From an uncultured Gammaproteobacteria bacterium (GTDB lineage: Bacteria; Patescibacteriota; Microgenomatia; CAYXHB01; CAZYTL01): a stretch of DNA of 64,000 nucleotides. A model generated the notes under the pieces. It was not told the DNA's origin, did no database searches, and saw only the letters and a program-made list of their open reading frames with translations. Numbering within the stretch: the stretch's first letter is position 1; every line of letters starts with the position of its first letter. Shown in pieces: positions 24,643-48,269 of the stretch. The DNA is taken from the NCBI GenBank assembly GCA_964650355.1, contig CAZYTL010000001.1:4018-68017 (forward strand). Reading direction: 5' to 3'. Position numbers and translations under genes: made by a program.

Positions 24643-24688
24643 AAGGGACCAAGAATCAAGAAACCAAAAGAACCAATAATTTAAGAGA

Positions 24689-31059: not shown

Positions 31060-32967
31060 CTAGTTAGTAAGCATCTTTCCTAGTCCAGGAATTTTTCCGA
31101 TTAGTTGTCGAATTTTGTTCTTATTCGCTACTAGTGGCTCATTGGTCGTTTCTTTCTGTAAAGTGCCGTTAGAAGGCGACACAGGGGCTACAACTTCTGC
31201 CTCTGTTGATGTTTCATCTGATTTTTCCTGTTTTTCCGTTATTTCCGGACCAAGTAGAATATCGACATACTGGTCAAGGTCTAACTCTTCCAAAATCATC
31301 TTTTGCAAAGCTCGCTTACGAATCAGCCACTGCTTTATACCAATTGGGTCACTTGGGTCCGGCTTGTCCTGGGCAATGAATTTGTCATATAGCAACAATA
31401 TCTGGTTGAGTCTTGCTTGTTTGTCAGGCGGAATTACTGGCTCAACTTCGACAATTGCATCTACGCTAACTTTTTTATCTTCAGATTTAAATTCCTTAAA
31501 ATCAACATTATTTCCTACTATCCTGTAGAGCTTATCCTCGCTGAGGAACTCTCTATTTAACTGGATGAGGATATTAGCCACAGTAGTTAAAGCGTTTGAA
31601 ATATTTTGAGCATTTATGCTTAACCGTAGGTTGCTTTGACCAAGGAGCATTGCAACTTTCCCTAGTGGTTCGCTGGACGACTTTGGTAGCCCCTGCAAAT
31701 ATTCACCTAGCGCCAGAGTCCTCGATATCTCATCTCGCAGCATCTTATCTTCGTTGAGCCCCATCAAACTTATTTCTGGAGGTCGCTCAATAACCACATC
31801 ATCCATTTTTCTGAGCTCCCAAACAGCTCCAGGAGAGAAAATAATGTCATTCTTGGTGATGCCGGTATCTTTACGGATCTTAACTACTGGATCTAGCATC
31901 AGAATTACATCATCCATGCGTTGGTTACGCAGGTCAGCAATCTCCATAATGGTACTTTCAACAGGCTCAACATGACCGGTTGCCCAGAATTCCCAGAGAA
32001 GAGACATATCTGGCAAATCAACAAAGATGTGTCCATTGTTGATATCCAAGTATGGGTTCTCGTCATCCCTAATTACCACTTCACCATTGGCAATAACTAC
32101 CAGTTCATCTTCCTCATAGTCCCAACATTCCCATAACTCCAGTTGCTTCTCTTGATCACTTTTTACAGGCAGGACTTTTTGTTCACCGGTGTCGGCTTTC
32201 TTAAGATCGCCATCAATCTGAGACATTTTTTTGGTGTTTATTTCATATCGTTCTTTTTTCCAATCCTCAACATTCTTGGGGTTACAAAATTCAAGATTCT
32301 TGTATATATGGTTTTCTCCACGGTTTTCTTCTTCTTTTGTAATTTTTTCCTTAGTTTTAACTATCCTGTGGATTAGCCAAGGGCACCCATCCTGCAGATC
32401 CTCTGTTTCTGGTGCCGGCAGGAAGTCCCACAAGTCGCATAGAATCATGGTTGGATCGTCATATAAGACTTTGAATGTTTCATCCGATTTTTTCCTGCTT
32501 TGAACTTTCCAGGCTAATTTAACAATTCCGTTTCCATACAATACTGATGACTCAATCCAGTGGGGAAGCTTTTTGGCTAGTTCAATAATGTCAAAGTCAT
32601 AGTTGACCAAGTCATCCCAAGAAGATAATGCTCTTGACTCTACATCTCTCTTGTCTCTGGGAATGACTCGTGTTTTGCGTTTAGCAGTCGCTAGTCTAGA
32701 TACAACCGTCTTGACGATTTCAAATGCTATTGGGGGCATGAGGCGAGTGTTGTAGGCGTAGTTTTGTTTGTGCTGATAAGCCCGGTAGAGCTTATACATC
32801 CTCAGCCACTTAGCTTGGTATGGATCACGAAACTCTTTTGCCCGCTTAAATCGAGCTTTCCATTTTTTGAGGAGTTTTTCATCACGTTCCGTAGGTTCGT
32901 ATCTTTTTCCTGGTGAAATTTTTGTTTCTTTGACTTTAGGGTTTGGCATAGTAATTTTGGCCAACAA
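31060..32967 (-). CDS. portal (head-tail connector) protein
   Basis: 635 aa, upstream of the head module. The N-terminal RAKEFRDPYQAKWLRMYKLYRAYQ region is interpreted as portal-like, and the C-terminus is acidic. The assignment rests on size and position and is not backed by a motif. Confidence 0.45.
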   Translation of the reverse strand: MLAKITMPNPKVKETKISPGKRYEPTERDEKLLKKWKARFKRAKEFRDPYQAKWLRMYKLYRAYQHKQNYAYNTRLMPPIAFEIVKTVVSRLATAKRKTRVIPRDKRDVESRALSSWDDLVNYDFDIIELAKKLPHWIESSVLYGNGIVKLAWKVQSRKKSDETFKVLYDDPTMILCDLWDFLPAPETEDLQDGCPWLIHRIVKTKEKITKEEENRGENHIYKNLEFCNPKNVEDWKKERYEINTKKMSQIDGDLKKADTGEQKVLPVKSDQEKQLELWECWDYEEDELVVIANGEVVIRDDENPYLDINNGHIFVDLPDMSLLWEFWATGHVEPVESTIMEIADLRNQRMDDVILMLDPVVKIRKDTGITKNDIIFSPGAVWELRKMDDVVIERPPEISLMGLNEDKMLRDEISRTLALGEYLQGLPKSSSEPLGKVAMLLGQSNLRLSINAQNISNALTTVANILIQLNREFLSEDKLYRIVGNNVDFKEFKSEDKKVSVDAIVEVEPVIPPDKQARLNQILLLYDKFIAQDKPDPSDPIGIKQWLIRKRALQKMILEELDLDQYVDILLGPEITEKQEKSDETSTEAEVVAPVSPSNGTLQKETTNEPLVANKNKIRQLIGKIPGLGKMLTN

Positions 32968-32970
32968 AAA

Positions 32971-33019
32971 GGGGCTTGGGTTTTCCTACTTTCTTAAAAA
33001 ATAGAGAAACCTAAGCCCC
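32971..33019 (-). terminator. long stem-loop (13-bp stem) followed by T-run on the minus strand
   Basis: ggggcttgggttt...aaacctaagcccc. On the minus strand it is followed by tttttgttgg. It lies at the boundary between the portal gene and the defence cassette. Confidence 0.45.
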
Positions 33020-33035
33020 GATAGATTCGTTAGGC

Positions 33036-33060
33036 GGATTTATTTATGCCTTCAGAGTAC
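33036..33060 (+). repeat. left copy of about 24-bp imperfect direct repeat flanking the RM/SIR2-HerA cassette
   Basis: ggatttatttatgccttcagagtac compared with ggatttacttatgccttcagggttc at 44147..44170. Confidence 0.55.
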
Positions 33061-33173
33061 CGATTTACCAGTCAAATGGCTAGTTGTTTAATGTCACTAT
33101 GTGTAATTACCTAGTTGAAGCTATAAAAAGCTGTTGAAATAAATCGAATTTTTTTATATCCTATTGGTATATA

Positions 33174-33386
33174 TTGTTAAGTAAATTTATCAACAGTAAT
33201 ACTATGGAAGAACTTCTAACGATAGGCGAAGCCGCTCAGATTTTGAAGGTTCATCCCAACACTTTACGTTTGTGGGATAAAAACGGCATCTTGAAAGCTG
33301 TGAGAATTGGTGTGAAAAAAACTCGCAGATACAGAAAAGAGGATATCGAGAAGTTTATTAAAGAAGGTAAAAATAATAAGGAATAA
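33174..33386 (+). CDS. excisionase/MerR-like HTH DNA-binding protein
   Basis: LTIGEAAQILKVHPNTLRLWDKNGILKAVRIG is the MerR/excisionase-family HTH. The likely start is the ATG at 33204 (MEELLTIGEA...). It is a paralogue of ORF 48019..48213. Confidence 0.6.
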   Translation: MLSKFINSNTMEELLTIGEAAQILKVHPNTLRLWDKNGILKAVRIGVKKTRRYRKEDIEKFIKEGKNNKE

Positions 33387-33391
33387 AAACT

Positions 33392-35614
33392 ATGACTCAA
33401 GCTCAAAAACAGCAACTAGAAAAACAACTTTGGGCAGTTGCCAATGTTCTTCGAGGCAAGATGAATGCTGACGAATACAAGAACTATATCTTGGGGTTTA
33501 TTTTTTACAAATATCTTTCAGAAAAACTTGCTCGATACATAGATGAGAAACTATTATCCAACGAGAAGTTTGATTTTTCCGAAATTGATGAATCTAGCAA
33601 AGATGGTCAAAAAATCATTGATGCTGTCAAGAAAGCCTGTATTGATCACTTAGGATTTTTCCTTAAACCTAAGGACCTTTTCTCTTATCTCGTAAAGAAA
33701 GGTAATGGAGAAATTAAGAGTCAAAGCACCTTTATCCTAGAAAACCTTAAAGACGTTCTTAACTCCATTGAACAAACTTCTATGGGAACAGCTAGTGAAG
33801 ATGATTTCAAAGGACTTTTTGACGACGTGGACTTAACTTCATCCAAATTAGGTAAATCGGAAAACAAGAAAAATCAAGTAATTGTGGAAGTATTGACACT
33901 ACTTGGCGCTATTGATTTTAAGCTAGAAGATTCTAAAAGTGATTTACTTGGTGATGCTTATGAATACTTGATCGGAGAATTCGCAGCCGGAGCGGGTAAA
34001 AAAGGTGGAGAGTTCTACACTCCAGCCCAAGTTTCTAGATTGCTTTCTAAGATAGTGATTCGCGGCAAGAAAAAAATTAAATCTGTTTACGATCCTACTT
34101 GTGGATCAGGCTCTCTTCTACTTCGCATAGGCGAGTATGTAGATGTAAAGGCTTATTATGGGCAAGAACTAAACCCTACAACCTACAACTTAGCTCGAAT
34201 GAACATGATCTTGCATGGAGTCCACTTTGATGATTTCAGTATTCGCCAAGGAGATACATTAACCGACGACATGCACTTAGATTTAAAGGCAGAAGCAGTT
34301 GTTGCTAATCCTCCCTTCTCAGCTGACTGGAAGGGTGATAAAGACCCAGCTTTGGTGCACGATGAGAGATATTCTCAATACGGAAGATTGGCTCCAAAAA
34401 GCAAAGCAGATTATGCTTTTGTTACGCACATGCTACATCATTTATCTGATAACGGAATAATGGCTGTGGTTTTACCTCATGGTGCGCTATTCAGGAGTGG
34501 AGCTGAAGAACAGATTCGTAAATATATAATCGAAAAACAGAATTACCTTGATGCGGTAATAGGTTTGCCACCAAATATTTTTTATGGAACAAAGAAACCT
34601 TTTGCAATATTAGTATTTAAAAAATGTAGAAGCGAAGATCAAGACATATTTTTTATTGATGGTTCAAACGAGTATGTTGTTGGAGAAAAAAAGAACCTGA
34701 TGACAGATCAAAACATTAATAAAATATTTAACATATATGAAAATCGCCAAGAAATCGATGAATTTTCTTATAGAGCAAAATTATCTGAGGTAAAGAAAAA
34801 TAATTTTGACCTTTATATTTCTCGATATGTAAAAATAATTGAAAAAGAACAAGAAATCTCAATCGCTGAGGTTGCAAAAAAACTGTATAGACTTCAAGAG
34901 CTAGAACAACCCCATCAAGAAAGAGTTAAAAAATATTGCGATAAATTAGGATGTCCGCCTCCAATTGGATCTAATACTCAACTTCTTACCGATTATAAGC
35001 GTGGTTTAATTCAGAAGCTTTTTTCAAGAGAAATTAGGTTTAGAGATAAAAAACAGAAAGATTTTCCAGATTGGACAATCTATAAACTCGAGAATGTTTT
35101 ACACGAACATGGAAAAAAAAGTACCGGAAAAGAAAAAGTGTACTCTGTTTCTGTGCATAAAGGTTTGGTTGACCAGATTGAACATCTTGGAAGAAGTTAT
35201 GCAGCTAAATCAACAAGCCACTACAATTTAGTAAAACCAGGAGATGTTGTATACACAAAAAGTCCAACTGGTGATTTCCCTCTAGGAATTATAAAACAAA
35301 GCAAAATTAGTAAGACAGTCATAGTCTCTCCGCTTTACGGAGTATTTACCCCCAAAACATTTGATTTGGGATTTATTCTAGATGCCTATTTTGAATCAAC
35401 TGCCAATACGAACAACTACCTATCACCCATTGTTCATAAAGGTGCAAAAAACACCATTGCAATTACTAACAGCACTTTTTTGTCTGGCGAACTATCACTG
35501 CCTGTTTCTGAAGAAGAAATACAAATAGTTGCAGACTTTATAAGGTCTATTGACCAGATAATTCTCTTAAAGAGCGGATCTTTTTCGCAAAATGTCAAAA
35601 GTCACGAAGTTTAA
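33392..35614 (+). CDS. hsdM: Type I restriction-modification HsdM methyltransferase fused to a single-TRD HsdS specificity module
   Basis: HsdM motifs: SAM-binding VYDPTCGSGSLLL and catalytic VVANPPFS (NPPF). The C-terminal ~250 aa has HsdS features: conserved boundary DFPDWTIYKLENV, one target-recognition domain, and the terminal LPVSEEEIQIVADFIRSIDQII repeat. Confidence 0.75.
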   Translation: MTQAQKQQLEKQLWAVANVLRGKMNADEYKNYILGFIFYKYLSEKLARYIDEKLLSNEKFDFSEIDESSKDGQKIIDAVKKACIDHLGFFLKPKDLFSYLVKKGNGEIKSQSTFILENLKDVLNSIEQTSMGTASEDDFKGLFDDVDLTSSKLGKSENKKNQVIVEVLTLLGAIDFKLEDSKSDLLGDAYEYLIGEFAAGAGKKGGEFYTPAQVSRLLSKIVIRGKKKIKSVYDPTCGSGSLLLRIGEYVDVKAYYGQELNPTTYNLARMNMILHGVHFDDFSIRQGDTLTDDMHLDLKAEAVVANPPFSADWKGDKDPALVHDERYSQYGRLAPKSKADYAFVTHMLHHLSDNGIMAVVLPHGALFRSGAEEQIRKYIIEKQNYLDAVIGLPPNIFYGTKKPFAILVFKKCRSEDQDIFFIDGSNEYVVGEKKNLMTDQNINKIFNIYENRQEIDEFSYRAKLSEVKKNNFDLYISRYVKIIEKEQEISIAEVAKKLYRLQELEQPHQERVKKYCDKLGCPPPIGSNTQLLTDYKRGLIQKLFSREIRFRDKKQKDFPDWTIYKLENVLHEHGKKSTGKEKVYSVSVHKGLVDQIEHLGRSYAAKSTSHYNLVKPGDVVYTKSPTGDFPLGIIKQSKISKTVIVSPLYGVFTPKTFDLGFILDAYFESTANTNNYLSPIVHKGAKNTIAITNSTFLSGELSLPVSEEEIQIVADFIRSIDQIILLKSGSFSQNVKSHEV

Positions 35615-35620
35615 ATACAT

Positions 35621-38416
35621 ATGGCACAATCAGAACTACAACTAGAAAACGAATTAATATCTCAACTTAATACATTAGGTTTTGATATTGTTTCTATTCC
35701 CAACGTTGATTCGCTTCATCAGAATTTACAATCTCAACTTGAAAAATTCAATCAAACTAAATTCTCTGATCTTGAATTCTCTCGAATTTTAAACTACTTA
35801 ACTAAGAGTGATCGTTTTCAAAAAGCAAAAACTTTGCGAGATAGATTTGCCCTAAAGCGCGATGATGAAAGCACTTTGTGGGTACGCTTTTTCAACATGG
35901 ATAAGTGGTGTAAGAACGAATATCAAGTTACACATCAGGTTACCCAAGCCGGAAGATATGAGAATCGTTACGACGTAACTTTGCTTATTAACGGTTTGCC
36001 ATTGGTTCAGATTGAACTCAAACGTCGTGGTGTTGAAATGAAAGAAGCGTTTAATCAAATTCAACGCTATCATCGTCATTCTTTCACAGGGACCCTGTTT
36101 GAATATATTCAAGTATTTGTAATTTCTAATGGCGTTAACACTAAATACTTTTCGAATAATCCTAGACAATCATTTGAACAAACATTTTTTTGGACAGATG
36201 TAAACAATAAAAAAATAACTCAACTTAATGAGTTTGCTGATGTGTTTTTAGAAAAATGCTCTTTGTCAGCAATGATCGCTGAATATATTGTTCTTCATGA
36301 ATCACTTAAGATTCCAATGATCTTACGTCCCTATCAGTATTTTGCAGTTAAAGCTATTGAACAACGAGTAAAAGAATCAGATAAAAATGGTTACATTTGG
36401 CACACCACTGGATCTGGAAAAACTTTAACCTCATATAAGGCGAGCCAGATTCTCTCTCAGCTACCGGAAATTAAGAAGGTTTTATTCGTTGTTGATCGAA
36501 AAGATTTAGACATTCAGACCACCAAAGAATTTAATTACTTCTCTGATGGCTCAGTAGATGGTACCGATAACACACGAAATTTAGTTGCTCAACTTAAAGA
36601 TCCAAATCGAAAACTCATAGTTACTACCATTCAAAAACTAGATAGGGCTGTTTCGAGAGAATCATATATTCATCAATTTGAAGCTCTCCAAAATGAAAAA
36701 CTGGTCATTATTTTTGATGAATGTCACCGAAGTCAATTTGGATTAACACATTCAAGAATTAAAGGTGCTTTAAAAAATGCTCAGTTGTTTGGTTTCACTG
36801 GTACGCCAATCTTTGCAGACAACAATGTCGGTGGTGTAACTACCAAAGATGTGTTTGGCGAGTGTCTGCACAAGTACATTATCACTCATGCCATTGATGA
36901 TAATAATGTGCTCGGTTTTGCAGTTGAGTATGTTGGTAAATATAAGAAAAAAGATCAAGATACTTTGGACGCAGATATTTTTGCTGAAACTTTAGTAGAA
37001 GGTATTAATACCAAAGAAGTTCTTGAAAGCGATGAGCGTCTAGAAAAAATTACTGAGTACATTCTTCAAGATTGGAAACGAAAAACTAAAAAAGGTAAAT
37101 TCAACGCAATTTTTGCCACAAGCAATATTAGTGTTTTGAAAAGATACTACAAGTTGTTTGCTGACCAAAAACCTGACGATTTCAAAGTAGCGACAATATT
37201 TACTTATCAAGCCAATGAAGATGATAGCTCCGACATGCTTGACGTTGATATTTTTGCTGGTGAAGGTACTACCGGTAACCAACATTCTAGAGATTTCTTA
37301 GAGTCATGCATAAAAGATTACAACACTCTCTATGGAACAAATTATTCAACTGACCGCTTCTACGACTATTATCGAGATTTACAAAAACGAATTAAAGAAA
37401 AGCAAGTTGATTTAGTTATTGTGGTGAACATGTTCCTAACAGGTTTTGATAGTCCGAGACTCAATACCTTGTTCGTAGATAAAAACCTAAGATATCACGG
37501 TCTAATCCAAGCGTACTCACGTACTAACCGTCTACTTAATTCAGACAAACCACATGGGAATATTGTTTCCTTTAGGAATCTAAAACTAGCCACTGATAAA
37601 GCATTAGCATTGTTTGGTGATGAGAACGCTAAAGAAGTTGTTTTCAAAAAACCGTATGAGATTCAGAAAAAAGAATTTGAACAAAAATTATCAGAAGTAA
37701 AGAAAAAGGTTCCTACTGTAGATTCAGTTGATGATTTGCAGGGAGAAGAAGAAAAGGCTTCATTTGTTAAAAGCTTTAGAGATCTTTTGAGAATTAAATC
37801 CTCTCTAGAAACTTTTGCTGAATTTTCATTTGATGACTTAGGTATATCTGAGCAAGAATTTTATGATTACCAAAGCAAATATCTCGACATTCATGAAGAG
37901 CGCAAAAAACACGATCCTGAAAAGGAATCTATATTAGATCAAATCGACTTTGAGCTTGAACTTACAGTAAGAGATGTTGTTGATTTTGACTATATTATTC
38001 AACTTATTGCTGGGTTGAAAGACATTAGCTCAGATGCTGTTAGAGAAAAGAAGACTGAAGAAATCTTGAAGCTATTTGACCGTGATGTAAAACTTCGCAA
38101 GAAGAAAGAGCTAATCAAGAAATTTATTGAAGAAAATCTTCCCAAGGTTGGTAAAGATGGAAACGTCGAAGAAGCCTTTGAGAAATTCTGGTCAAGTGAA
38201 AGATCTACTGCTTTAAAAGATGTGGCTCAGACTGAAAATATTCCTCTAGAAAAATTTGAACAAGTTATTGGTGAGTACTTGTATACCCAAAAACTTCCAC
38301 ATAGTCAGGACATTATTGATCTACTCCCAGAAGCTCCCAAGATCTTAGAGCGTCAAGGAATCATCGATAGGATTAAAAATGCAATTGAAAATATAGTGGA
38401 TATTTTTGAATGGTAA
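35621..38416 (+). CDS. hsdR: Type I restriction enzyme HsdR (endonuclease/helicase subunit)
   Basis: N-terminal PD-(D/E)xK (DVTLLINGLPLVQIELK), helicase motif I HTTGSGKT, and motif II IIFDECHRS (DECH box). Confidence 0.8.
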   Translation: MAQSELQLENELISQLNTLGFDIVSIPNVDSLHQNLQSQLEKFNQTKFSDLEFSRILNYLTKSDRFQKAKTLRDRFALKRDDESTLWVRFFNMDKWCKNEYQVTHQVTQAGRYENRYDVTLLINGLPLVQIELKRRGVEMKEAFNQIQRYHRHSFTGTLFEYIQVFVISNGVNTKYFSNNPRQSFEQTFFWTDVNNKKITQLNEFADVFLEKCSLSAMIAEYIVLHESLKIPMILRPYQYFAVKAIEQRVKESDKNGYIWHTTGSGKTLTSYKASQILSQLPEIKKVLFVVDRKDLDIQTTKEFNYFSDGSVDGTDNTRNLVAQLKDPNRKLIVTTIQKLDRAVSRESYIHQFEALQNEKLVIIFDECHRSQFGLTHSRIKGALKNAQLFGFTGTPIFADNNVGGVTTKDVFGECLHKYIITHAIDDNNVLGFAVEYVGKYKKKDQDTLDADIFAETLVEGINTKEVLESDERLEKITEYILQDWKRKTKKGKFNAIFATSNISVLKRYYKLFADQKPDDFKVATIFTYQANEDDSSDMLDVDIFAGEGTTGNQHSRDFLESCIKDYNTLYGTNYSTDRFYDYYRDLQKRIKEKQVDLVIVVNMFLTGFDSPRLNTLFVDKNLRYHGLIQAYSRTNRLLNSDKPHGNIVSFRNLKLATDKALALFGDENAKEVVFKKPYEIQKKEFEQKLSEVKKKVPTVDSVDDLQGEEEKASFVKSFRDLLRIKSSLETFAEFSFDDLGISEQEFYDYQSKYLDIHEERKKHDPEKESILDQIDFELELTVRDVVDFDYIIQLIAGLKDISSDAVREKKTEEILKLFDRDVKLRKKKELIKKFIEENLPKVGKDGNVEEAFEKFWSSERSTALKDVAQTENIPLEKFEQVIGEYLYTQKLPHSQDIIDLLPEAPKILERQGIIDRIKNAIENIVDIFEW

Positions 38417-39602
38417 GAAAAATTTTATGAAAATTATAGACGATAAATCATTAGAAGAACTTAAAAATATAGTTCAAGATTGTAATGTAAACTTTTTACT
38501 TGGTTCAGGCATGTCCATGCCCTATCTTTCTACTCTTGGGAAAATTGAACAATTTTTAACAGAACTTGCACAAAAAAAAGAAAAAGGAGAAGTAACAAAC
38601 GAACAAGAAAAGATTATTAGAGTATCTTTGTATAAAAAATTTTTTGATGGCGCAATAGTAAAGAATTTAGATGTTCTAAAAGAAAGTGTTGATGCTAAGA
38701 AGGTATTGGATAACTACGAGAATTTTTTAGTAATTCTTAATTCTATTTTACTTAATAGAAAAAGCAGCATCCTAAATAAACAATTAAATATCTTTACAAC
38801 AAATGTAGATATTTTTTTAGAAAAATCACTGGAAAATACAAACGTAGAATATAACGATGGGTTTAGTGGAAGATTTTCTCCGAAATTTAATTTAACCAAT
38901 TTTAAAAAGTCGTTTTATAAAACTAGTCTTCATTATGACAATGTTTCAGAGCTACCAGTGTTTAATTTAATGAAAATTCACGGCTCACTGACTTGGGATA
39001 AAAGAGAGAAAGAAGATATTTTGTTCTCATCCAAACTAAATATTGTCGATAAAATTAAATCTAAAACAATAACTGGAAATACACTTATTGATATTGATGA
39101 TGAAGAAACAATAGATGAACTTATTACCAAAGCCAATACTAAGACCCCAGATTCGTCAGTAGATGAATTTATAGTTGAATACGAAAAGCTTGCGATTGTA
39201 AATCCGACAAAAGAAAAATTCAGAGAAACTGTTTTAAACAGAAATTATTATGAATTACTCAGGATTTATTCAAATGAACTTGAAAAAGAAAACACAATTC
39301 TTATTGTTGCTGGATTTTCATTCGCTGATGAACATATTCGAGATGTAACAATAAGAGCCGCCAATTCAAATCCAACTTTAAAAATCTATATACTTTCCCA
39401 TTCAAGTGATGCCGACGAAGGATCATTAATAGTCAAAGATAAGTCGATAAACGGCAATGTTGAGATTGTTGTACCACCGCAAAAGCAAGATGATCCTGAA
39501 CAAGAACCAGTAGATGAGTTCAAATATAACTTAAAAAACATAAATGAAAAAATCTTTACAGAATTACTTAAAAAGATTGGTGAGAGAAAAGAAGATAAAT
39601 AA
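38406..39602 (+). CDS. SIR2-family (NAD-dependent deacetylase-fold) defence protein
   Basis: FLLGSGMS (GxGxS Rossmann loop of SIR2), TTNVD (TTNYD-like) and KIHGS (HG catalytic His). The start overlaps the hsdR stop. An alternative start is at 38427. Confidence 0.7.
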   Translation: MNGKKNFMKIIDDKSLEELKNIVQDCNVNFLLGSGMSMPYLSTLGKIEQFLTELAQKKEKGEVTNEQEKIIRVSLYKKFFDGAIVKNLDVLKESVDAKKVLDNYENFLVILNSILLNRKSSILNKQLNIFTTNVDIFLEKSLENTNVEYNDGFSGRFSPKFNLTNFKKSFYKTSLHYDNVSELPVFNLMKIHGSLTWDKREKEDILFSSKLNIVDKIKSKTITGNTLIDIDDEETIDELITKANTKTPDSSVDEFIVEYEKLAIVNPTKEKFRETVLNRNYYELLRIYSNELEKENTILIVAGFSFADEHIRDVTIRAANSNPTLKIYILSHSSDADEGSLIVKDKSINGNVEIVVPPQKQDDPEQEPVDEFKYNLKNINEKIFTELLKKIGERKEDK

Positions 39603-39611
39603 TCCTAAAAC

Positions 39612-41471
39612 ATGAATAGCAAGCAAATACTCAAAGATTCTATATTCAAAGTTGGTAAGGTCATATCAGTTGATGGGCGAATTGTTAGAATAAAGGTTGA
39701 TAAAACAAAGAACTCTTCGAACTTACTATATAATGGCAAGTTGCTTAAAAATATTTCTGTAGGTGGGTATGTAAAAATAATCAAAGGTTTCACAAAGATA
39801 ATTGGCAAGGTCGATGGAGAATATATTAATGAAGAAAAAACCTTTTCAAATAAGGAATATGCAAGCGGAAAAGAAAAAATCAGCCGCGTGCTTAATGTTA
39901 GTTTGTTAGGTTTTTTTGGGGATAAAGGTTTTGAGAGAGGCATAAAAGAATTGCCTTTAATAGACAATGAGTGTTTTTTGCTTGAAAATGAAGAGTTTGG
40001 TTCAGTTCACCATTTTGTTAAAAAAGATGATGAGCCAATAACCGTAGGAAGTCTTTCTTTAGAAAAAGGTCAAGAAATCAAAGTTGGAGTTAATAGTTTG
40101 TTTGCGAGCCATATAGGAATTTTTGGGAATACTGGTAGCGGAAAATCATATACGTTAGCAAAAATTTATAGGGAATTATTTAAAAAGTATGAAGGGAGAG
40201 AAAATTTTCGGAACAATGGTATGTTTCTCTTGTTTGATTTTAATGGAGAATATGCAGATGAGAAGTGCATAATCGAAGGAAAAAAAATTTACAACCTAAC
40301 CACCAAAAAGACACTTAATACAATTAATAATGACGATAAATTTCCATTAAATGAGAATGACTTAATTGATTTGGAGCTTATTTCTATTCTTGCTAACGCA
40401 ACAGAAAAAACTCAGAGACCATTCTTATCCAGATCGTTAGACTTTTATAAAAAAATAAATGATGCCGATGACTCTCTTGAGTTTTTCAAAAATGTTTTAA
40501 AAAAACGGACAAAAGAAGTTCTAAGGATGGCAGATAAAGATAAAGCGCACGTTCTTATCGATTATTTAATTAATATTTTAGAAAAACCAGAAGAAAACTT
40601 AAACGAAGATCTTTTCGCCGCTATCGAATGGAACAATACAAATCATCACTTCATGCCTAGAAATGGCCAAAGCAGAGAATTAACGGATAGCGAAATTGAA
40701 GGAACAATTTTATATACATCCGCTAATAGCTATCAATTTCCCCAAAATATACTTACAAAAGTCATTCATTTTCTATACTTACAAGTAATTTTTGATATTT
40801 ACAACGACAAGGCTCAAAACGAACATATTGCCCCGGCCATTAATAAATTGAAGAGTAAACAAAAAGATATAGAGAAAGTTTTGAATACTAGCAGTACAAC
40901 CAACGACTTCTTTGTAGATAGCAATTTTGTGGTATTGAATCTTAAAGACGTTAATATCGAAATGAGAAAGACATTGCCTCTACTACTATCCAAAAAGGCT
41001 TATTCAGAACATAAACACAAACATAGACGAGATGAGAAGAAGTATTTAAATATTATTATTGATGAGGCTCACAATATATTATCCAAAGAATCTTTTAGAG
41101 AGGCTGAGAGCTGGAAAGATTATCGACTGGAAACATTTGAAGAGATAATTAAAGAGGGGCGTAAGTTTGGGGTCTTTCTAACAATAGCGAGTCAGCGACC
41201 CCATGATATATCCGCGACTATTATTTCCCAGCTGCACAATTATTTCCTACATAGATTGATAAATAATCACGACATTGTGGCTGTAGAAAGAACTATTGCT
41301 TATCTTGATAAATTGTCTGTTGAGTATTTATCTATTTTACCTACTGGTACATGTGTATTAGCAGGTTTGCTTGCACAGGTTCCTGTAGTTATTGATATTG
41401 GCAAAATAGAACCCAAAGAGCACGAACCTAACAATAAAACTATCAACTTAATAGAAAGTTGGAGTGACTGA
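39612..41471 (+). CDS. herA: HerA-like hexameric ATPase/helicase
   Basis: Walker A GIFGNTGSGKSYT, Walker B LNIIIDEAHN, FLTIASQRP, and an N-terminal HAS-barrel-like region. It sits immediately after the SIR2 gene. Confidence 0.75.
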   Translation: MNSKQILKDSIFKVGKVISVDGRIVRIKVDKTKNSSNLLYNGKLLKNISVGGYVKIIKGFTKIIGKVDGEYINEEKTFSNKEYASGKEKISRVLNVSLLGFFGDKGFERGIKELPLIDNECFLLENEEFGSVHHFVKKDDEPITVGSLSLEKGQEIKVGVNSLFASHIGIFGNTGSGKSYTLAKIYRELFKKYEGRENFRNNGMFLLFDFNGEYADEKCIIEGKKIYNLTTKKTLNTINNDDKFPLNENDLIDLELISILANATEKTQRPFLSRSLDFYKKINDADDSLEFFKNVLKKRTKEVLRMADKDKAHVLIDYLINILEKPEENLNEDLFAAIEWNNTNHHFMPRNGQSRELTDSEIEGTILYTSANSYQFPQNILTKVIHFLYLQVIFDIYNDKAQNEHIAPAINKLKSKQKDIEKVLNTSSTTNDFFVDSNFVVLNLKDVNIEMRKTLPLLLSKKAYSEHKHKHRRDEKKYLNIIIDEAHNILSKESFREAESWKDYRLETFEEIIKEGRKFGVFLTIASQRPHDISATIISQLHNYFLHRLINNHDIVAVERTIAYLDKLSVEYLSILPTGTCVLAGLLAQVPVVIDIGKIEPKEHEPNNKTINLIESWSD

Positions 41472-42985
41472 TGAATATGACATTATCTAAATCCGACTAC
41501 ATGCTTTTTCTTCGTCACCCAGCTTGGCTGTGGTTGAAGAAGTTCAACAAAAATAAACTTCCCCCGATTGATGAGGATACGCAGGCTTTATTTGACGCTG
41601 GTCATGAATTTGAAAGTTACACAGAAAAGCTGTTTCCTGATGCCATCCGTTTAGGTTTTAACAATTTCGATGAGTATCTTTCACTACCCAATAAAACCCT
41701 TCAAGAGATTAATAGTGGCACTCAAACTATTTTTCAAGGTCGATTAGAGATAGATGGTTTAACTTGTATTTTTGACGTTTTGCAAAAAGTTGGGGAGAAG
41801 GAATTTGACTTAATTGAAATAAAAGCCACTACCAGAGCTAAGCCAGAACACGAATACGATCTAGCATTTCAACTGTTAGTTTTGGAGAGGTCTGGTTACT
41901 CGGTTAGAAATATTTCTGTTGTTCATGCCAATAAAGAGTATGAGAGAAATGGGGATATAGATCCAAAACTTCTTTGTGACCAAACTAATATCACTGAAAA
42001 AGTAAAAGCTCTGAGAGAAGTAACTGAGCAACAGGTATCTGCAGCTCAGACGATGCTGGGCGAAAAAACAATTCCTGACATTTCTCCTCGGTACGTGAAC
42101 AAAGTTAACATTCCTGGCGTTTCTCAATGGTTCCAAGAATGGCTGGATATCTACAAGATACTGAAACCAAATAATGATCCCTACAATATTTACGAGCTTA
42201 GTTACCCTAGTGCTGAACAAATAGCTAGTTTAGAGGACGAGGGCATAACAAGGATAGCTGATGTGCCTGATGAGTTAGTTTTAAGACCAAAACAATTTGC
42301 TCAAGTAAAAACCACCAGAGAAGATAGGCCAATTTTAGATAAAGAAAAGATCAGAGAATTTTTAGATTCTTTTCAGTACCCACTTTACTTTTTTGATTAT
42401 GAAACGATGTCCTCAGTAGTCCCCGTGTTTGATCGCATGAGCCCTTATAAAGACTATCCATTTCAGTACTCCTTGCACGTTCTTCGATCCCCAGATGCTG
42501 AAGTCGAGCATCATGAATATCTGCATTCGGAGAATTCAAATCCGATGCCAAGACTTCTTAGTCAGCTCACACAAGATATTGGCAATGAAGGCACTGTTCT
42601 CACTTGGAATATGAGTTATGAAAAAGGATGCAATGACCGCATGGTCGCACTATACCCAGAATATTCAGAGTTTTTGGCAGAACTTAACGAGAGAATAAAT
42701 GATCTAATGATTCCATTCTCTGAGATGTGGTATTTCCATAAGGATTTCTTTGGTAGTGCATCAGTTAAAAAAGTAATGCCTGTATTGGCTCCTGAGTTAA
42801 GTTACAAGGAGCTCAATGTTGGCAATGGACTCCTTGCTAGGAGAATGTGGACCCAAACTATTTTAGAAGACAAACACCAAGATCAACGAGATAAAATTAT
42901 GGAGGATTTGAGCAAATATTGCACTCTAGATACATTTGCTATGGTTCGAATTTTGGAGGTATTGAGGGAAATTATTAATGAATAA
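41471..42985 (+). CDS. predicted two-domain nuclease (PD-(D/E)xK-like N-terminus + DEDD/RNase H-like C-terminus; DUF2779-like)
   Basis: N-terminal IFDVL...DLIEIKAT (D...ExK). C-terminal YFFDYETMS (Exo I FDxET) and YCTLD (Exo III YxxxD). Its ATG overlaps the HerA stop (tgaTGAatATGa), which implies translational coupling. Confidence 0.5.
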   Translation: MNMTLSKSDYMLFLRHPAWLWLKKFNKNKLPPIDEDTQALFDAGHEFESYTEKLFPDAIRLGFNNFDEYLSLPNKTLQEINSGTQTIFQGRLEIDGLTCIFDVLQKVGEKEFDLIEIKATTRAKPEHEYDLAFQLLVLERSGYSVRNISVVHANKEYERNGDIDPKLLCDQTNITEKVKALREVTEQQVSAAQTMLGEKTIPDISPRYVNKVNIPGVSQWFQEWLDIYKILKPNNDPYNIYELSYPSAEQIASLEDEGITRIADVPDELVLRPKQFAQVKTTREDRPILDKEKIREFLDSFQYPLYFFDYETMSSVVPVFDRMSPYKDYPFQYSLHVLRSPDAEVEHHEYLHSENSNPMPRLLSQLTQDIGNEGTVLTWNMSYEKGCNDRMVALYPEYSEFLAELNERINDLMIPFSEMWYFHKDFFGSASVKKVMPVLAPELSYKELNVGNGLLARRMWTQTILEDKHQDQRDKIMEDLSKYCTLDTFAMVRILEVLREIINE

Positions 42986-43021
42986 CTGTAATAAGTCATG
43001 ATTGAACTTAAAATAAAATAA

Positions 43022-44113
43022 ATGAAAAATGTTTCATCAATTGTCAGATTTTGCATTCTACTAGCCTTATTATTTGGTTTGATCTATACAAACAAGCAAC
43101 TCGGTGAGACTAATGCACGACTGGAGAAAGTTGAGATCAAGCTTGGCGGTGCAGAAAAAATTGATTGCAACGAAAAGGATTCCATTGAAAAAGTTCGTCA
43201 ATCTGTCGTTAGAATCATCGGGGGAGAAGCTGAAGGATCTGGTTTTGCTATTAAATCAGGTGGAGTAATTCTCACAAATTTCCATGTTATCGAGTTTGAA
43301 CCCACGCCGAAGGTTGTCTTACCAGATAATTCATTCGAAACAGCAGAAGTGCTTATGGCTGATAAAAATGCAGATCTCGCCATAATAAAGATCAATAAAG
43401 AATTGCCTGTTATTTCTTGGGGTGAGCCATCAGAACTTGATCCGGCAGAAGAATTACTTGCCATAGGCTTTCCGTTAGGTGGTCAGCTTAGCGGTGAAGC
43501 ATCGGTTAACAAAGGCTCCCTTTCTGGGCGAAGAAGGTCGAAAGATGTCGGTATCGAGTACTTACAAACTGATACTACTTTGAATCCTGGAGTAAGCGGT
43601 GGGCCTATGATTAATATTTGTGGCGAGGTAGTTGGTATAAACACAGCTGGTCTATCTGGATTAGGCCTTGGTATATCTTCCGACTCAATTAAGCAAAAAT
43701 GGCTTGAAATGGCCACGGCAGAGGATCCATTGGCTGATGTTCAGAAGATTGACTTTAAACCCGAGGAAAGCTCGTTAGAGGCGGTCAGAGCGTTCTATAA
43801 CTACCTCAAGGCTCGCAAACTAGAGAAAGCATTTGATTTGCTGTCAGATAATTTTAAGAAAGGTTATGATTTTGACTACTGGAAACAGGGGTATGAACCC
43901 CTTCTAGACACCAGTGTTATTAAAATCGAGGATGACCCAGAAATAGAAAATAGGGTAATTATCAAGCTGTCAACTAAGGACTTCGTTGATGAGGAAATTG
44001 TTTATAAGTACTTCGAGGGCTATTGGGACGTTAAAGATGTTGATGGTCGCTGGTTGCTTTGGGACCCTGAAATAAAAGAGGTAGATCCAGATTTTCTCTG
44101 GTTCTATGAATAG
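43022..44113 (+). CDS. membrane-anchored/secreted trypsin-like serine protease (S1 family)
   Basis: N-terminal transmembrane/signal helix. Catalytic triad context: TNFHV (His), DLAII (Asp), GVSGGP (Ser). Confidence 0.65.
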   Translation: MKNVSSIVRFCILLALLFGLIYTNKQLGETNARLEKVEIKLGGAEKIDCNEKDSIEKVRQSVVRIIGGEAEGSGFAIKSGGVILTNFHVIEFEPTPKVVLPDNSFETAEVLMADKNADLAIIKINKELPVISWGEPSELDPAEELLAIGFPLGGQLSGEASVNKGSLSGRRRSKDVGIEYLQTDTTLNPGVSGGPMINICGEVVGINTAGLSGLGLGISSDSIKQKWLEMATAEDPLADVQKIDFKPEESSLEAVRAFYNYLKARKLEKAFDLLSDNFKKGYDFDYWKQGYEPLLDTSVIKIEDDPEIENRVIIKLSTKDFVDEEIVYKYFEGYWDVKDVDGRWLLWDPEIKEVDPDFLWFYE

Positions 44114-44146
44114 ATATCATGAAAATTAAACACGAGACGATATTGG

Positions 44147-44170
44147 GGATTTACTTATGCCTTCAGGGTT
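44147..44170 (+). repeat. right copy of about 24-bp imperfect direct repeat
   Basis: ggatttacttatgccttcagggtt, with 21 of 24 positions identical to 33036..33060. Confidence 0.55.
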
Positions 44171-44185: not shown

Positions 44186-46564
44186 CTAAAACATTCTTCG
44201 ACTTTGTGTCTTGATTTTGGCCTTCCAAACTTCAAAAATAAATTTATTAACATCTTCTTCGTTTACTAAGCGTACGATGATTTCATTGGATCTTCCCAGC
44301 ATTGGTACTCTGTTGTATCTATCCCTAATGGCCTCTACTAAGCCATAAACTTCCATCATTAGTTGTTTTTCTGTAGGAGATGACAACTTGACTCCGTCAG
44401 GAACATCAGAAAACCATTTATTGGCATAAGCTTTCTCAAATGGTTTGATGAACTCTTTCAGATAGTTAACAATTCCCATTTTATCTTGCTTAAGTGCCAA
44501 TATCCCAATAAAACATGCTCTCTCCATGATTCTGGGTTCTGTAAATCCATAACTATCTCCGGTTTCTTTTGTGAGCATTTTACTTGCAAAATTATTGATT
44601 ATTTTGATTGCGTCCCTGGCGACTTGGTCTTGGTTTTTCTGCAAAGCTCTAATACCAATTTTTGCTGCTGCCTCGACAAGAGAGTCAAGTGATTGATCTT
44701 TCCTAATTTTTTCTACATCGTGAGTAAACCACTCAGTCTGGAAGATGTACCAACCTACTTGTTTTAATAATTCTTCCTTATCTTGTTGCCACTTCTCATC
44801 TTCTGTTAAATCTAAAAGAAGGCATCCGATATCTGCAATTAAGTTTCCAAAAGTGTTCACCAACAAATGGTTGGGGTTTTTCATTTTTTCTGATAGATAG
44901 CGTAGCGTAGAGCGAAGTTCTTCAACAACCACAAAGAAGATTCCTTTCCATTCTTTGCGGTCATCTTCCTTTTTTGCACTATTAGCAGCTTTTGCAATTT
45001 GAAAGATCAAAGATGACGTATTTTCAAATGGGTTGGATAGGTTGGTTTGCATTACGAAGCTGCTGTCTAGAGCTCCCGCCATCATGGAGAGGTAAGCATA
45101 ATAAATTATTTGTCTAAGATGTTCCCACAAAGAACCCAATTCCATCTCTAGGTTGAAGTATTTAGAAGTTATAAGTTGAGTTAATATCGAGTTGTAAGTA
45201 TTAATGACCTCACCTAACACAACATTGTATTTATTTCCCAAAGCACTGAAGGCAATTTTATCGAGCATCCCGTAAATTGAGATGAACTCATAGTGGAGAT
45301 TTTGCTTTATTGCAATAGGAGCTATCTGACCGTAAGCGACTGCACCTTGAAATAAGGCTTCTTGATATTTAAATTTGATCGCGCTTTGAAGTAGTTGATC
45401 GAGGTAACCTCGACACTGTTCCATTATTGGACTTTCTACCTTTCTTTTGGTTAGGTAGTTAATTTGACTAGCAGATTGAGATAATTGGACAAAAATGTTA
45501 ATTACTTGGGTTATTCCCTGGTTATCATTTTCTCGCATATAGTTTTCACCAACGGCAACCAGCCTCTCTAGAGGCGGAGTCAAGAAAGCTCTTGAATCAC
45601 TAGTTGTTGCAAGCACAAATCCTGCAGGTAACACGAAAGAAGAATCTTTTCTAACTTCAAAATATTTTTGCAAAATACTTGTTATTACTTGTAATACTTG
45701 AAGTGCAGAGCTCCTTTCGTTTGTAGACACAAGTCGATCATGGTAATCGAAAAGATAATTTAGCCTGCTATTAATGTAAGCAAATTCTGGCTGCATGTAC
45801 TGAAAAGATGTCGCCAGAGCTTCTTGTTTAGTTACCTTTTTATCTAGCTTTGGTTGTTTCATTAAGACATCAGCTATTTCTTGAGCTCGCTTGTAAATAG
45901 ATTCAATTTTATGAAGAGCTTGCTCTGAAGCGATTTTCAAAACATTGTTAGGGTTCAGCCTAGTCCTAACTCTCTGATAGAGGATAAATGTTAGGTAGAA
46001 AACAAAACCTACTAAAATTAAGGAGAGCTGAAGCGAGGCTGTCGATAGCCCTAATCCAAAATTCCCAAAGAGCAGAGAAAAGGAAAAGACAACCAAGGCA
46101 CAGGCACTAATTAAGAAGAAAATTAAATCATGGACATTATCTTTCGCGGCAGTTTCATAAAACCCTACTGGTATTCTCTCAGCAGCGTTTCCCATAAGCA
46201 AAATGCTCAAAGAAAAAATTATTGCCAAGATTCCACCAATCATAGCTGCTACTGCAGTAAAAAAGGTCAGAGCATCACTTCTGTCAAAGATTGAAATATA
46301 AGGGCCAAGAAAATAAACCAAACAAAGGAGAAGAACAAAATATAACAATCCGCCAAGCAAGTTCCTTTTCGACTTTAAGTAAAGAGACAATCTGTAGCGA
46401 ATAAAATTTAGGATCCTAAGCTTAATCAAGTAGAAATAGAAAACTGCTGTTTTCTTGAGAGATCTCAGCTGACTCAACAACTTTTTCTTGTTTTGAAAAA
46501 ATAATCTACAGACTTTTTTTGAGCCTTTCAAAAATGATTGTTTAGAGGATTTCTTTTTTGCCAT
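44186..46564 (-). CDS. large multi-pass membrane protein with long cytoplasmic domain (candidate defence effector)
   Basis: 792 aa. The N-terminal basic leader is followed by about 4-5 hydrophobic helices, then about 600 aa of soluble domain with no known motif. It is the last gene of an HTH-led operon. Confidence 0.45.
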   Translation of the reverse strand: MAKKKSSKQSFLKGSKKVCRLFFQNKKKLLSQLRSLKKTAVFYFYLIKLRILNFIRYRLSLYLKSKRNLLGGLLYFVLLLCLVYFLGPYISIFDRSDALTFFTAVAAMIGGILAIIFSLSILLMGNAAERIPVGFYETAAKDNVHDLIFFLISACALVVFSFSLLFGNFGLGLSTASLQLSLILVGFVFYLTFILYQRVRTRLNPNNVLKIASEQALHKIESIYKRAQEIADVLMKQPKLDKKVTKQEALATSFQYMQPEFAYINSRLNYLFDYHDRLVSTNERSSALQVLQVITSILQKYFEVRKDSSFVLPAGFVLATTSDSRAFLTPPLERLVAVGENYMRENDNQGITQVINIFVQLSQSASQINYLTKRKVESPIMEQCRGYLDQLLQSAIKFKYQEALFQGAVAYGQIAPIAIKQNLHYEFISIYGMLDKIAFSALGNKYNVVLGEVINTYNSILTQLITSKYFNLEMELGSLWEHLRQIIYYAYLSMMAGALDSSFVMQTNLSNPFENTSSLIFQIAKAANSAKKEDDRKEWKGIFFVVVEELRSTLRYLSEKMKNPNHLLVNTFGNLIADIGCLLLDLTEDEKWQQDKEELLKQVGWYIFQTEWFTHDVEKIRKDQSLDSLVEAAAKIGIRALQKNQDQVARDAIKIINNFASKMLTKETGDSYGFTEPRIMERACFIGILALKQDKMGIVNYLKEFIKPFEKAYANKWFSDVPDGVKLSSPTEKQLMMEVYGLVEAIRDRYNRVPMLGRSNEIIVRLVNEEDVNKFIFEVWKAKIKTQSRRMF

Positions 46565-46570
46565 ATATTG

Positions 46571-47284: not shown

Positions 47285-47287
47285 AAA

Positions 47288-48022: not shown

Positions 48023-48213
48023 GTATTTTTCGTTTTGATAAATTGATCGATAGATTTTGGATCATATCTTCTATCCCCGCGCTCGTTTACTTTAATTGCT
48101 TTTAGTTTTCCGCTCTTATCCCATCGCCTAAGGGTCTCGACATGAACATTCAAAACTTCCGCCGCTTGGCGAATATTTAGTAGTTTCGGTAATGCAATGT
48201 TTTTCTTCGACAT
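48019..48213 (-). CDS. excisionase/MerR-like HTH DNA-binding protein (paralogue of 33174..33386)
   Basis: LLNIRQAAEVLNVHVETLRRWDKSGKLKAIKV. It overlaps the start of the downstream gene by 4 nt. Confidence 0.6.
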   Translation of the reverse strand: MSKKNIALPKLLNIRQAAEVLNVHVETLRRWDKSGKLKAIKVNERGDRRYDPKSIDQFIKTKNT

Positions 48214-48269
48214 AACTCAACTTAATTATACAAAAATATAGCCTAAGTTGATATACTTGTAATACAACC

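Follow-up and report, generated by a model that had tools for sequence, protein, structure and literature searches.

The window, by which the whole analysed stretch of 64 kb is meant, is a prophage of a CPR/Patescibacteria (Microgenomates) bacterium and encodes a sigma factor of its own. It contains a hotspot of variable gene content between two conserved phage genes on the minus strand. The proximal flank is the SU10-type portal gene (31060-32949; Pfam SU10_portal), which is 57-98% identical in 16 distinct viral-contig loci and 19 genome loci, and the distal flank is o49938 (49938-50501, 187 aa), the final conserved phage gene ahead of the hotspot. The portal-side border is formed by a conserved spacer of ~150 nt upstream of the portal gene, termed junction J here (32950-33100, minus strand; defined by alignments across relatives). 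Among related phages the interval from o49938 to the portal gene ranges from ~0.15 kb (empty) to ~17 kb and has at least eight different contents at this fixed position between core genes. By sequence match these contents correspond to known defence systems, namely Type I, Type IIG-like and Type III-like R-M, SIR2-HerA, Gabija, a Ppl-like protein, DUF4365, AbiU2 and PDC-S39.

In the window the hotspot is occupied by two modules of low GC content. Module A, next to J, is an operon of seven genes on the plus strand. A candidate sigma-70-like promoter (33134-33162, TTGAAA-17-TATCCT), a consensus match whose count is at chance level, precedes the gene of an HTH_17/MerR-type DNA-binding protein (33204-33386; Pfam and PADLOC mad1 matches). 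This is followed by a type I R-M methyltransferase fused to one C-terminal specificity (half-S) domain (33392-35614; N6_Mtase 8e-102, HsdM_N, PADLOC MTase_I 5e-155), with the Specificity_I domain at residues 530-727 (PADLOC) and no separate hsdS gene, and by the type I restriction subunit HsdR with an EcoR124_C-type C-terminus (35621-38416; PADLOC REase_I 5.6e-297; Pfam HSDR_N, SWI2_SNF2, T1R_D3-like and EcoR124_C). A SIR2-domain protein (38406-39602; PADLOC SIR2 3.4e-66, Pfam SIR2_2) and a HerA-type ATPase (39612-41471; PADLOC HerA 1.2e-182, Pfam DUF87), encoded 9 nt apart, form a SIR2-HerA pair. The conserved 3' end of the module consists of a DUF2779/Cas4-like PD-(D/E)XK nuclease gene (41471-42985; Pfam DUF2779 2e-38) and, as the last gene, that of a trypsin-like (S1) serine protease (43022-44113; Pfam Trypsin_2 1e-26). 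HsdM, HsdS and HsdR functions thus occur together, and the strong HMM matches to HsdM, HsdR, SIR2 and HerA, the canonical gene order and the adjacency of the genes resemble known type I R-M and SIR2-HerA systems. The module differs from these in the single half-S domain fused to HsdM and in the placement of both systems in one HTH_17-led operon that continues into the conserved DUF2779 nuclease and the trypsin-like protease. A MADS system was considered and rejected; there are only weak secondary matches to mad1, mad2 and mad8, the other mad models are unmatched (PADLOC), and the proteins concerned match Type I MTase and HerA much more strongly.

The original prediction took the HTH protein to be excisionase-like. 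This was not supported: a protein ~80% identical to it leads operons with quite different cargo in relatives, and this conserved position suggests that it is an operon regulator rather than an excisionase. The view of the block as a discrete low-GC module of defence genes did hold, but the low-GC island extends past the right repeat to ~50 kb. There it includes module B (44186-49922, mixed strands), made up of p792, a predicted membrane protein (44186-46564, minus), a 237-aa gene (46571-47284, minus), an AbiU2-type HEPN protein (47288-48022, minus) and p550 (48270-49922, plus). In a relative (L006/c1927) the module is likewise bounded by p792 and p550 homologues.

Two imperfect direct repeats enclose exactly one operon, from the HTH gene to the S1 protease gene, as had been predicted. 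The left copy (33036-33060; GGATTTATTTATGCCTTCAGAGTA at 33036-33059) lies within the resident J, and the right copy, J' (44147-44170; GGATTTACTTATGCCTTCAGGGTT), is found 15 nt downstream of the p792 stop codon, separated from the protease stop codon by a spacer of 33 nt (44114-44146). The two are identical at 21 of 24 positions, with a longest exact run of 12 nt. A gapped extension of the repeat (CTAGTTG...) was not significant (p about 0.08) and no similarity was found on the other flank; the repeat is therefore only ~24-26 nt long. A 23-mer of the left copy is identical and in the same place in five relatives (L002, L035, L036, L037 and L038), while in the public viral, metagenome and genome collections an exact 20-mer was found only as a single copy, at J, and the C-variant of the right copy was absent from the public collections searched. 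A REP-like element or generic terminator, the reading that would have followed from a genome-wide repeat, was rejected, since the motif has only these two sites in the 64 kb (search allowing ≤3 mismatches), close relatives hold one copy each, beside the portal gene, and the right copy has no hairpin.

The left copy is embedded in a larger conserved structure. In J, a moderately conserved 5' part, which holds the repeat, is followed by the invariant box GCCTAACGAATCTATC (33020-33035; from alignments of J across relatives), a hairpin and a U-run. Read in portal sense, the repeat directly adjoins the invariant GCCTAACGAA box on its 5' side, and the similarity of the right copy to J stops exactly at the start of this box. 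The stem-loop at 32971-33019 has a fold energy of -40.9 kcal/mol (z = -3.2), and 4 of its 15 predicted pairs keep pairing through changes on both sides. Since its U-run follows on the minus strand, it is a predicted intrinsic terminator of the phage-gene strand before the portal gene and does not belong to the cassette; the stem-loop noted earlier beside the left copy is real, but its attribution to the cassette is not supported. Folding revealed no hairpin or other stable structure in J'. The GCCTAACGAA-hairpin element is a separate two-copy element, and its second locus lacks the 24-mer.

Comparison with relatives shows three states of the hotspot. In the empty state, o49938 is followed directly by J and the portal gene (L008/L017, L046 and L051; four loci). 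In the B state, p792 is followed by J and the portal gene (L006, L039 and L047). In the A state, o49938 abuts the protease end of an antisense protease-to-HTH operon, which is followed by J and the portal gene with one junction copy (c0160, c1209 and c1825). Whether a relative is empty, B-type or A-type, J is conserved in front of its portal gene, with one J after the module in every state, and the repeat aligns to the 5' part of J. Most relatives carry the antisense operon from HTH to nuclease and protease with swapped interior defence systems. Only in the window do modules B and A stand in tandem, so that the order is p792, J', the protease-to-HTH operon, J and the portal gene.

The ends of module A are shared with relatives and its boundaries are sharp. 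In the nearest relatives (portal 98% and TerL 95% identical) the protease is 99-100% and DUF2779 93-96% identical, the latter in c7080, L037 and L057-L064. DNA homology with the closest relatives begins at the DUF2779 start codon. Where relatives have the same cassette, homology ends precisely with the protease stop codon (position 44112), and it ends there for all relatives, before the 33-nt spacer. A protease of 100% identical protein sequence is encoded on 18 contigs, among different neighbouring genes, and in some relatives the gene of a large serine recombinase lies directly downstream of the identical protease gene. The window is also visibly mosaic around the hotspot, being most like c1825 from o53907 to o50504 (80-94% identical), like c7080/L037 in the portal gene and cassette ends, and like L006 in p550 (87%).

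Based on this comparison, the two repeats would be a recombination scar in which a mosaic boundary sequence was partly duplicated, and neither attachment sites nor a target-site duplication; we assign this reading a probability of about 0.7. In related phages the hotspot is empty or contains either module B, ending in p792 on the phage strand, or module A in antisense orientation, with the HTH regulator first, then R-M, an NTPase-type defence system and the PD-(D/E)XK nuclease, and usually the trypsin-like protease last, each state having a single J. The left repeat would be part of the resident J, and the right repeat a 24-nt stub of the J that formerly followed p792. The join, which would have needed no extended homology, may have linked the 3' end of an A-type phage's protease gene with a point just past ...AAATCC in a B-type J, by an illegitimate or microhomology-mediated event that retained the stub. 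No donor phage with a window-type J behind p792 turned up; direction and mechanism are both inferred, and the event may have run either way: module B with a J stub may have been inserted beside module A, or a B-type phage may have received module A together with its J inside its own J. J' is probably functionless.

Some observations weigh against a scar. Only ~24 nt of J are left in J' and neither flank has significant similarity, so the link to a former p792-J junction depends on position and on three relatives with a p792 only ~70% identical to that of the window. It is also somewhat odd that the 24-mer kept 21/24 identity while all its surroundings were lost. The latter could be explained if the 24-mer were a functional cis-element kept twice by selection, for example one to which the HTH regulator, an antiterminator or the phage sigma factor binds. 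The moderate conservation of the matching part of J across relatives, the sigma factor encoded by the phage and the recurrence of the neighbouring GCCTAACGAA-hairpin element at a second locus would fit such a role. J', however, lies between the convergent stop codons of the protease and p792, a place that calls for neither promoter nor operator, and the strongly conserved parts of J, the invariant box and the hairpin, are missing from it. With a second copy in no relative and no 24-mer at the second GCCTAACGAA locus, a selected element appears unlikely.

Chance similarity of two AT-rich intergenic sequences has to be weighed as well. Taken alone the repeat pair is weak evidence, because about 0.5 such pairs are expected per window by chance: the window holds four distinct direct pairs at ≥21/24, against a mean of 0.5 per block-shuffled window, and at least one pair occurred in 4 of 10 shuffles. 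The insignificant extension past 24 nt points the same way. The pair is nevertheless judged to be non-random because both copies lie in short intergenic spacers at the boundaries of one module and because the sequence of the left copy follows p792 in relatives; one copy is inside J and the other directly after p792, a gene followed by J in three relatives. Scaled from the shuffles, a rough estimate of the chance of any intergenic-intergenic pair is ~0.005, and for these two spacers it is far lower. Coincidence is thus quite improbable.

The original prediction favoured insertion of a self-contained cassette or a recombination site. In its explicit form, a recombinase would have integrated the 11-kb block into J and duplicated a core sequence, giving attL/attR sites, with the HTH_17 protein as excisionase. 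As with att core repeats, direct repeats flank a block and the unoccupied site carries a single copy: the search for an empty site, proposed as a check, yielded p792, one J and the portal gene in three relatives (L006, L039 and L047). This pattern, which counts to some extent against a scar, is equally predicted by it. The HTH_17 family does include excisionases, but this protein also leads operons in relatives where nothing could be excised. Domain searches found no integrase, transposase or other recombinase in the 64-kb window, and the seven genes of the block are all assigned otherwise. The serine recombinase next to the identical protease gene in some relatives might be taken as the missing enzyme, but no J-like sequence was found near it, and we know of no serine integrase that leaves 24-bp direct repeats behind. 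Copies matching at only 21 of 24 positions fit poorly with a duplicated core. Finally, the repeats do not mark the cassette elsewhere: none of the relatives carrying it (c7080, L057-L064, c0160, c1209 and c1825) has a second copy, and at the protease end the repeat was explicitly lacking in c7080, L057-L059, c0160, c1209 and c1825. Integration at attachment sites is therefore regarded as very improbable.

Alternatively, J itself, made up of the 24-mer segment and the invariant GCCTAACGAA box, could serve this CPR-prophage family as a dedicated site of docking or recombination for capturing and stacking defence modules before the portal gene. A hitherto unrecognised phage- or host-encoded recombination function would then act on J, and the duplicated 24-mer would be its footprint rather than the trace of a random illegitimate join; this idea is a long shot. 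A target-site duplication left by transposon-like insertion of the block, which direct repeats around a discrete segment of foreign composition might bring to mind, can be given next to no weight, as no transposase, no terminal inverted repeats and no inverted repeats pairing the two inner ends of the block were found, the copies are imperfect, the same cassette occurs elsewhere without a duplication, and 24 bp is far longer than any target-site duplication known to us.

A boundary scar of this kind has a close precedent in mycobacteriophage LRRHood, where a 1.35-kb insert lies between 29-bp direct repeats that are single-copy in relatives (Pope et al. 2011, PMC3029335). Repeats of ~50 bp are described for gene 68 of Island3 (Pope et al. 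2011, PMC3029335). The window shares with LRRHood the extra DNA in one phage between short direct repeats, the single copy in relatives without the extra DNA, the insert genes that protect, here by prediction, against other phages, the location of the repeat at gene ends, and an explanation by recombination at or beside a short boundary sequence. It differs in its imperfect repeat (21/24), which is the stub of a conserved regulatory spacer of greater length, and in the 11-kb size of the bracketed segment, itself a module that has long been resident in the phage clade. Stacking of two alternative modules also describes the event better than simple insertion. P2-like phages and P4-like satellites possess hotspots of antiviral systems, with portal-adjacent ones known in P2-like phages (Rousset et al. 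2022, PMC9122126), and exchange by recombination between co-resident phages has been proposed for these (PMC9122126). The fixed portal-adjacent position, the related temperate phages and the variable known defence systems between core genes are common to both cases. Here, in contrast, the host is an uncultured member of the CPR/Patescibacteria, the phage type has an SU10-like capsid and portal, defence is predicted from genes alone, and the hotspot has an internal frame with the HTH gene first, nuclease and protease last, and nested sub-slots. Lambdoid phages are reported to carry morons and conserved boundary ('linker') sequences, said to have been described by Juhala in 2000 and Clark in 2001, and T4-like phages reportedly have PeSL repeats in their hyperplastic regions (Arbiol, 2010). 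The window resembles these in its accessory genes of low GC content, which are inserted between core genes and have a promoter of their own (here a candidate one), and in the short conserved sequences at module borders, which act as recombination substrates in those phages. For J such a role is putative, and J is a single-locus spacer (with its terminator box at two loci) rather than a dispersed intergenic family.

The repeat pair is thus most likely an ordinary product of phage mosaic recombination and a known kind of feature. Reading it as a scar keeps the block from being mis-annotated as an att-flanked mobile element. In CPR/Patescibacteria, genomes are tiny and recognised immune systems few. 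The setting is moderately interesting in that a CPR prophage family has a portal-adjacent hotspot that swaps R-M and abortive-infection-type systems. The swapped systems, which include SIR2-HerA, Gabija, DUF4365 and Ppl-like proteins, sit in a conserved frame from HTH gene to nuclease and protease, and the swaps of cargo are very recent, since contigs that differ in cargo share a 100% identical protease. The hotspot is a dated example of module stacking and a place to mine for new defence genes, among them p792, p550, a 366-aa gene and the DUF2779-protease pair.

The two repeat copies lie where originally predicted, GGATTTATTTATGCCTTCAGAGTA at 33036 (33036-33060) and GGATTTACTTATGCCTTCAGGGTT at 44147 (44147-44170), in direct orientation and with 21 of 24 positions identical. 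Between them stands a single compact plus-strand operon, module A (33204-44113), in which the gene for an HTH_17/MerR protein (33204-33386) is followed by those for a Type I methyltransferase fused to a half-specificity domain (33392-35614), HsdR (35621-38416), SIR2 (38406-39602), HerA (39612-41471), a DUF2779/Cas4-like nuclease (41471-42985) and, last, a trypsin-like protease (43022-44113). Judged by HMM score and gene order, the predicted cargo fits Type I restriction-modification (R-M) plus SIR2-HerA, a far better fit than membership of MADS, for which the PADLOC matches to mad1, mad2 and mad8 are secondary. The reading of the HTH protein as excisionase-like is unsupported.

At no more than 3 mismatches, the repeat motif occurs at just these two sites in the window. 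A full scan for direct pairs with at least 21 of 24 identical positions returned four distinct pairs, the other three being the two repeats of a retroelement, paralogous coding segments and an AT-rich coding pair. Since ten block-shuffled windows gave 0-2 such pairs each (mean 0.5), the pair by itself is weak evidence, and its weight derives from the location of both copies. A gapped extension of the repeat (CTAGTTG...TTAA) was not significant (p about 0.08). An assembly chimera at the repeat is considered unlikely, because exact matching extends over 12 nt at most and the junction is covered at 100% identity by a Logan contig of run SRR14802573, which may not be the window's own sample.

The left copy lies inside J (32950-33100), the conserved spacer between the portal gene and o49938, a 187-aa minus-strand gene (49938-50501) that forms the distal flank of the hotspot. 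J is conserved whole in empty, B-type and A-type phages (alignments A1, A2 and A3 of the region upstream of portal) and consists of a moderately conserved 5' segment, an invariant box GCCTAACGAA(nnn)ATC seen in 18 of 20 aligned sequences, a hairpin in which 4 of 15 predicted pairs stay paired despite changes on both sides, and a T-run. The stem-loop noticed beside the left copy (32971-33019) is indeed strong (-40.9 kcal/mol, z = -3.2), with the amendment that the U-run after the hairpin is on the minus strand, which makes it a terminator just upstream of the portal gene. The invariance of the 5' box suggests a role beyond simple termination, such as factor binding or antitermination. The combination of box, long GGGGCT...AGCCCC hairpin and T-run is found twice per phage, on the minus strand (21870-21961 and 32971-33035 in the window), once ahead of portal and once, directly behind the retroelement module, ahead of the capsid-side operon, and likewise in the related loci L003, L005, L006, L010 and L017.

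On the portal strand the left repeat reads ACTCTGAAGGCATAAATAAATCC and occupies the stretch of J that directly precedes the invariant box. The right copy matches this same stretch, and the similarity stops exactly where GCCTAACGAA would start. It lies 15 nt past the stop codon of p792 (44186-46564, minus), an end gene of the neighboring module B (44186-49922). The 33 nt that separate the right copy from the protease stop codon have no significant similarity to the rest of J and match nothing. The intergenic spacer containing the right copy forms no stable structure. In L006, L039 and L047 the order is p792, then J, then portal, so that the anticipated empty site with a single J does exist.

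Searches with the portal and TerL proteins gave 16 and 17 distinct loci, respectively, with viral contigs partly shared, and a MAG search gave 19 loci. For the exact portal protein the sole record is a Logan contig of run SRR14802573, and BLAST found no match to the portal flank among GenBank phages or to the block among plasmids. With o49938 as anchor nothing was found in viral contigs; TerL replaced it, and TerL- and portal-anchored loci were stitched into complete TerL-to-portal intervals. The MAG hosts are Patescibacteria (CPR) of the Microgenomates, namely Woesebacteria, Gottesmanbacteria, Daviesbacteria, Shapirobacteria and Roizmanbacteria. Several MAG matches lie well inside contigs of 0.38-1.1 Mb, and the loci therefore represent a family of integrated CPR prophages. 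The window, too, is assigned to a CPR host of the Microgenomates. Some related MAG contigs (among L037-L055) carry the label Gammaproteobacteria or Pseudomonadales, perhaps owing to errors of binning or taxonomy, or to an association with hosts of these epibionts.

Across these genomes the o49938-to-portal interval is a hotspot with three basic states. In the empty state (L008/L017, L046, L051) about 145 nt separate o49938 from portal. In the second, module B lies on the phage strand with p792 last, adjoining portal in L039 and L047; L006/c1927 carries p550, HTH_17-HNH, an N6/N4 methylase, a Res-type helicase-endonuclease and p792. The ends of module B, p792 and p550 (48270-49922, plus), are conserved and its interior varies, with an AbiU2-type HEPN protein in the window and a Type III-like R-M in L006. 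In the third state module A lies antisense, its HTH gene (about 80% identical everywhere) adjoining portal and very different cargo following behind: PLD-SNF2 helicase, Type IIG-like methylase, Ppl-like ATPase, PD-(D/E)XK nuclease and trypsin-like protease in c0160 and c1209; PLD-SNF2, IIG methylase, Gabija, DUF2779, protease, a 366-aa gene and DUF4209/PDC-S39 in c7080 and L058; the same with DUF4365 replacing Gabija in L037/L057/L059; Type I R-M, Gabija and a PD-(D/E)XK nuclease in c0191/L050; and a Type III-like R-M and others in c1562. Among the genomes seen, only the window combines the two modules, and its order runs from o49938 through B, the right repeat, A, the left repeat and the terminator to portal. 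It is visibly mosaic around the join point, in that the o53907-o50504 stretch is closest to c1825 (80-94% identical), portal and cassette ends to c7080/L037, and p550 to L006.

We consider it probable, at roughly 70%, that the right copy is a stub of J that formerly followed p792 and was kept when two hotspots, one B-type and one A-type, became joined in tandem. Such a join would need no extended homology, its points being directly behind ...AAATCC in J and at the 3' end of the protease gene, and it could have run in either direction, with B and the stub entering an A-type phage or A and J entering the J of a B-type phage. The original prediction is upheld in part: the repeat marks a boundary between modules and a recombination junction, not a self-mobilising cassette. 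Chance similarity is unlikely given the positions of both copies. A functional cis-element duplicated as the 24-mer is likewise unlikely, since the right copy sits between two convergent stop codons and comes without the conserved box and hairpin.

Site-specific att sites, as the cassette reading would have it, fail on two counts. The window contains no integrase, transposase or other recombinase domain anywhere. It also has no tRNA gene as an integration target and no Rfam family. Nor does the repeat bound the cassette everywhere. The closest relatives (portal 98%, TerL 95%) lack the second copy; the DNA they share with the cassette is confined to the span between the start codon of DUF2779 (41475/41486) and the stop codon of the protease (44112), past which they run into a different gene. 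The identical protease protein occurs on 18 contigs in at least four different neighborhoods. In c0160, c1209 and c1825 the stop codon of the protease lies about 10 nt from that of o49938 with no J-like sequence between. No second J was found in the relatives, either in the 10 kb upstream of portal or in the stitched TerL-to-portal intervals. Rather than recurring genome-wide, the exact 20-mer (either base allowed at the variable position) is always single-copy at J in relatives, occurring on three contigs only in the viral and metagenome collections and, by mapping of fetched genome loci, in two further MAGs. A target-site duplication is excluded, as transposase and inverted repeats are absent, including any pairing the block's two inner ends.

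Between window 41471-44113 and L057-L064 the protease is 100% and the DUF2779 nuclease 95-96% identical, with wholly different upstream cargo from contig to contig (SIR2-HerA plus Type I R-M, Gabija, or DUF4365); homology breaks off precisely at the start codon of DUF2779 and at the stop codon of the protease. This pattern points to very recent cassette swapping within a conserved frame. Close to the module A 3' end a PD-(D/E)XK nuclease turns up repeatedly, with the protease as partner in most, not all, relatives, and the pair may be an undescribed two-gene unit. Some relatives with the identical protease also encode a large serine recombinase (L060:7098-9140, L063:5838-7880, also L062 and L064), as an in-frame fusion with codons 1-159 of the 366-aa gene. 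This gene, the usual neighbor downstream of the protease, is 98% identical up to the breakpoint ...TGCAAAGACTGCGAT. Host-like genes follow (a Glucodextran_B/Big_13 protein and a Wzy_C O-antigen ligase), and the locus probably represents either the end of a prophage or an integrative element that entered the 366-aa gene. As a cognate integrase the recombinase was rejected: no J-like sequence lies nearby and the junction is inside the 366-aa gene.

The remainder of the window is phage and lies on the minus strand, except for p550 and a cI/ImmA-like lysogeny module (62.5-64 kb, plus). Its minus-strand genes include an SU10-type major capsid protein (18812-19978), SU10-type portal (31060-32949), TerL (55208-56764), a ParB-methylase (57338-58597), a C5 methylase and an amidase. 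An ECF-like sigma factor (Sigma70_r2 + r4; 53907-54407, minus), kept in all relatives, is phage-encoded between TerL and the hotspot, and an 1800-aa protein that carries an LPD38 'large polyvalent protein' domain (4522-9924, minus) lies in the tail/injection region. A canonical diversity-generating retroelement (22659-26632, minus) comprises a reverse transcriptase (22659-23696), template repeat (24108-24229) and variable repeat (24702-24823), all on the minus strand; the variable repeat lies in the C-terminus of a 647-aa AAA_5 (MoxR-like) protein adjoining a CobT/VWA protein, and all mismatches between the two 122-nt repeats fall on template adenines. Between portal and the CobT/AAA_5 genes, a low-GC gene for a TPR + LA2681-type HEPN protein (29201-30763, minus), present in some relatives and missing from others, is likely a further defence or abortive-infection moron within the structural region.

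GC content is 41-44% in the phage core and 30-37% from 33.0 to about 50.0 kb, so the low-GC stretch outruns the right repeat by 6 kb, across p792, a 237-aa protein, the AbiU2-type HEPN protein and p550. The p792 product is a predicted membrane protein with a multi-pass N-terminus and no Pfam or PADLOC match, and p550 has no match; both are predicted candidates for exclusion or defence functions.

The closest precedents for the repeats are the short direct repeats at mosaic boundaries of mycobacteriophages, such as the 1.35-kb insert of LRRHood, which carries a heterologous repressor between 29-bp repeats that are single-copy in relatives, and Island3 gene 68 between ~50-bp repeats; homologous exchange at short boundary sequences and illegitimate recombination were both weighed there (PMC3029335). 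The locus as a whole comes closest to the defence hotspot that P2-like phages carry between gpA and gpQ, their portal gene (PMC9122126). In principle the window's repeats might allow module A to be deleted on rare occasions, which would regenerate p792-J-portal. New here are the host clade, with these hotspots in prophages of CPR bacteria, and the way module A is built, as a frame with multiple slots.
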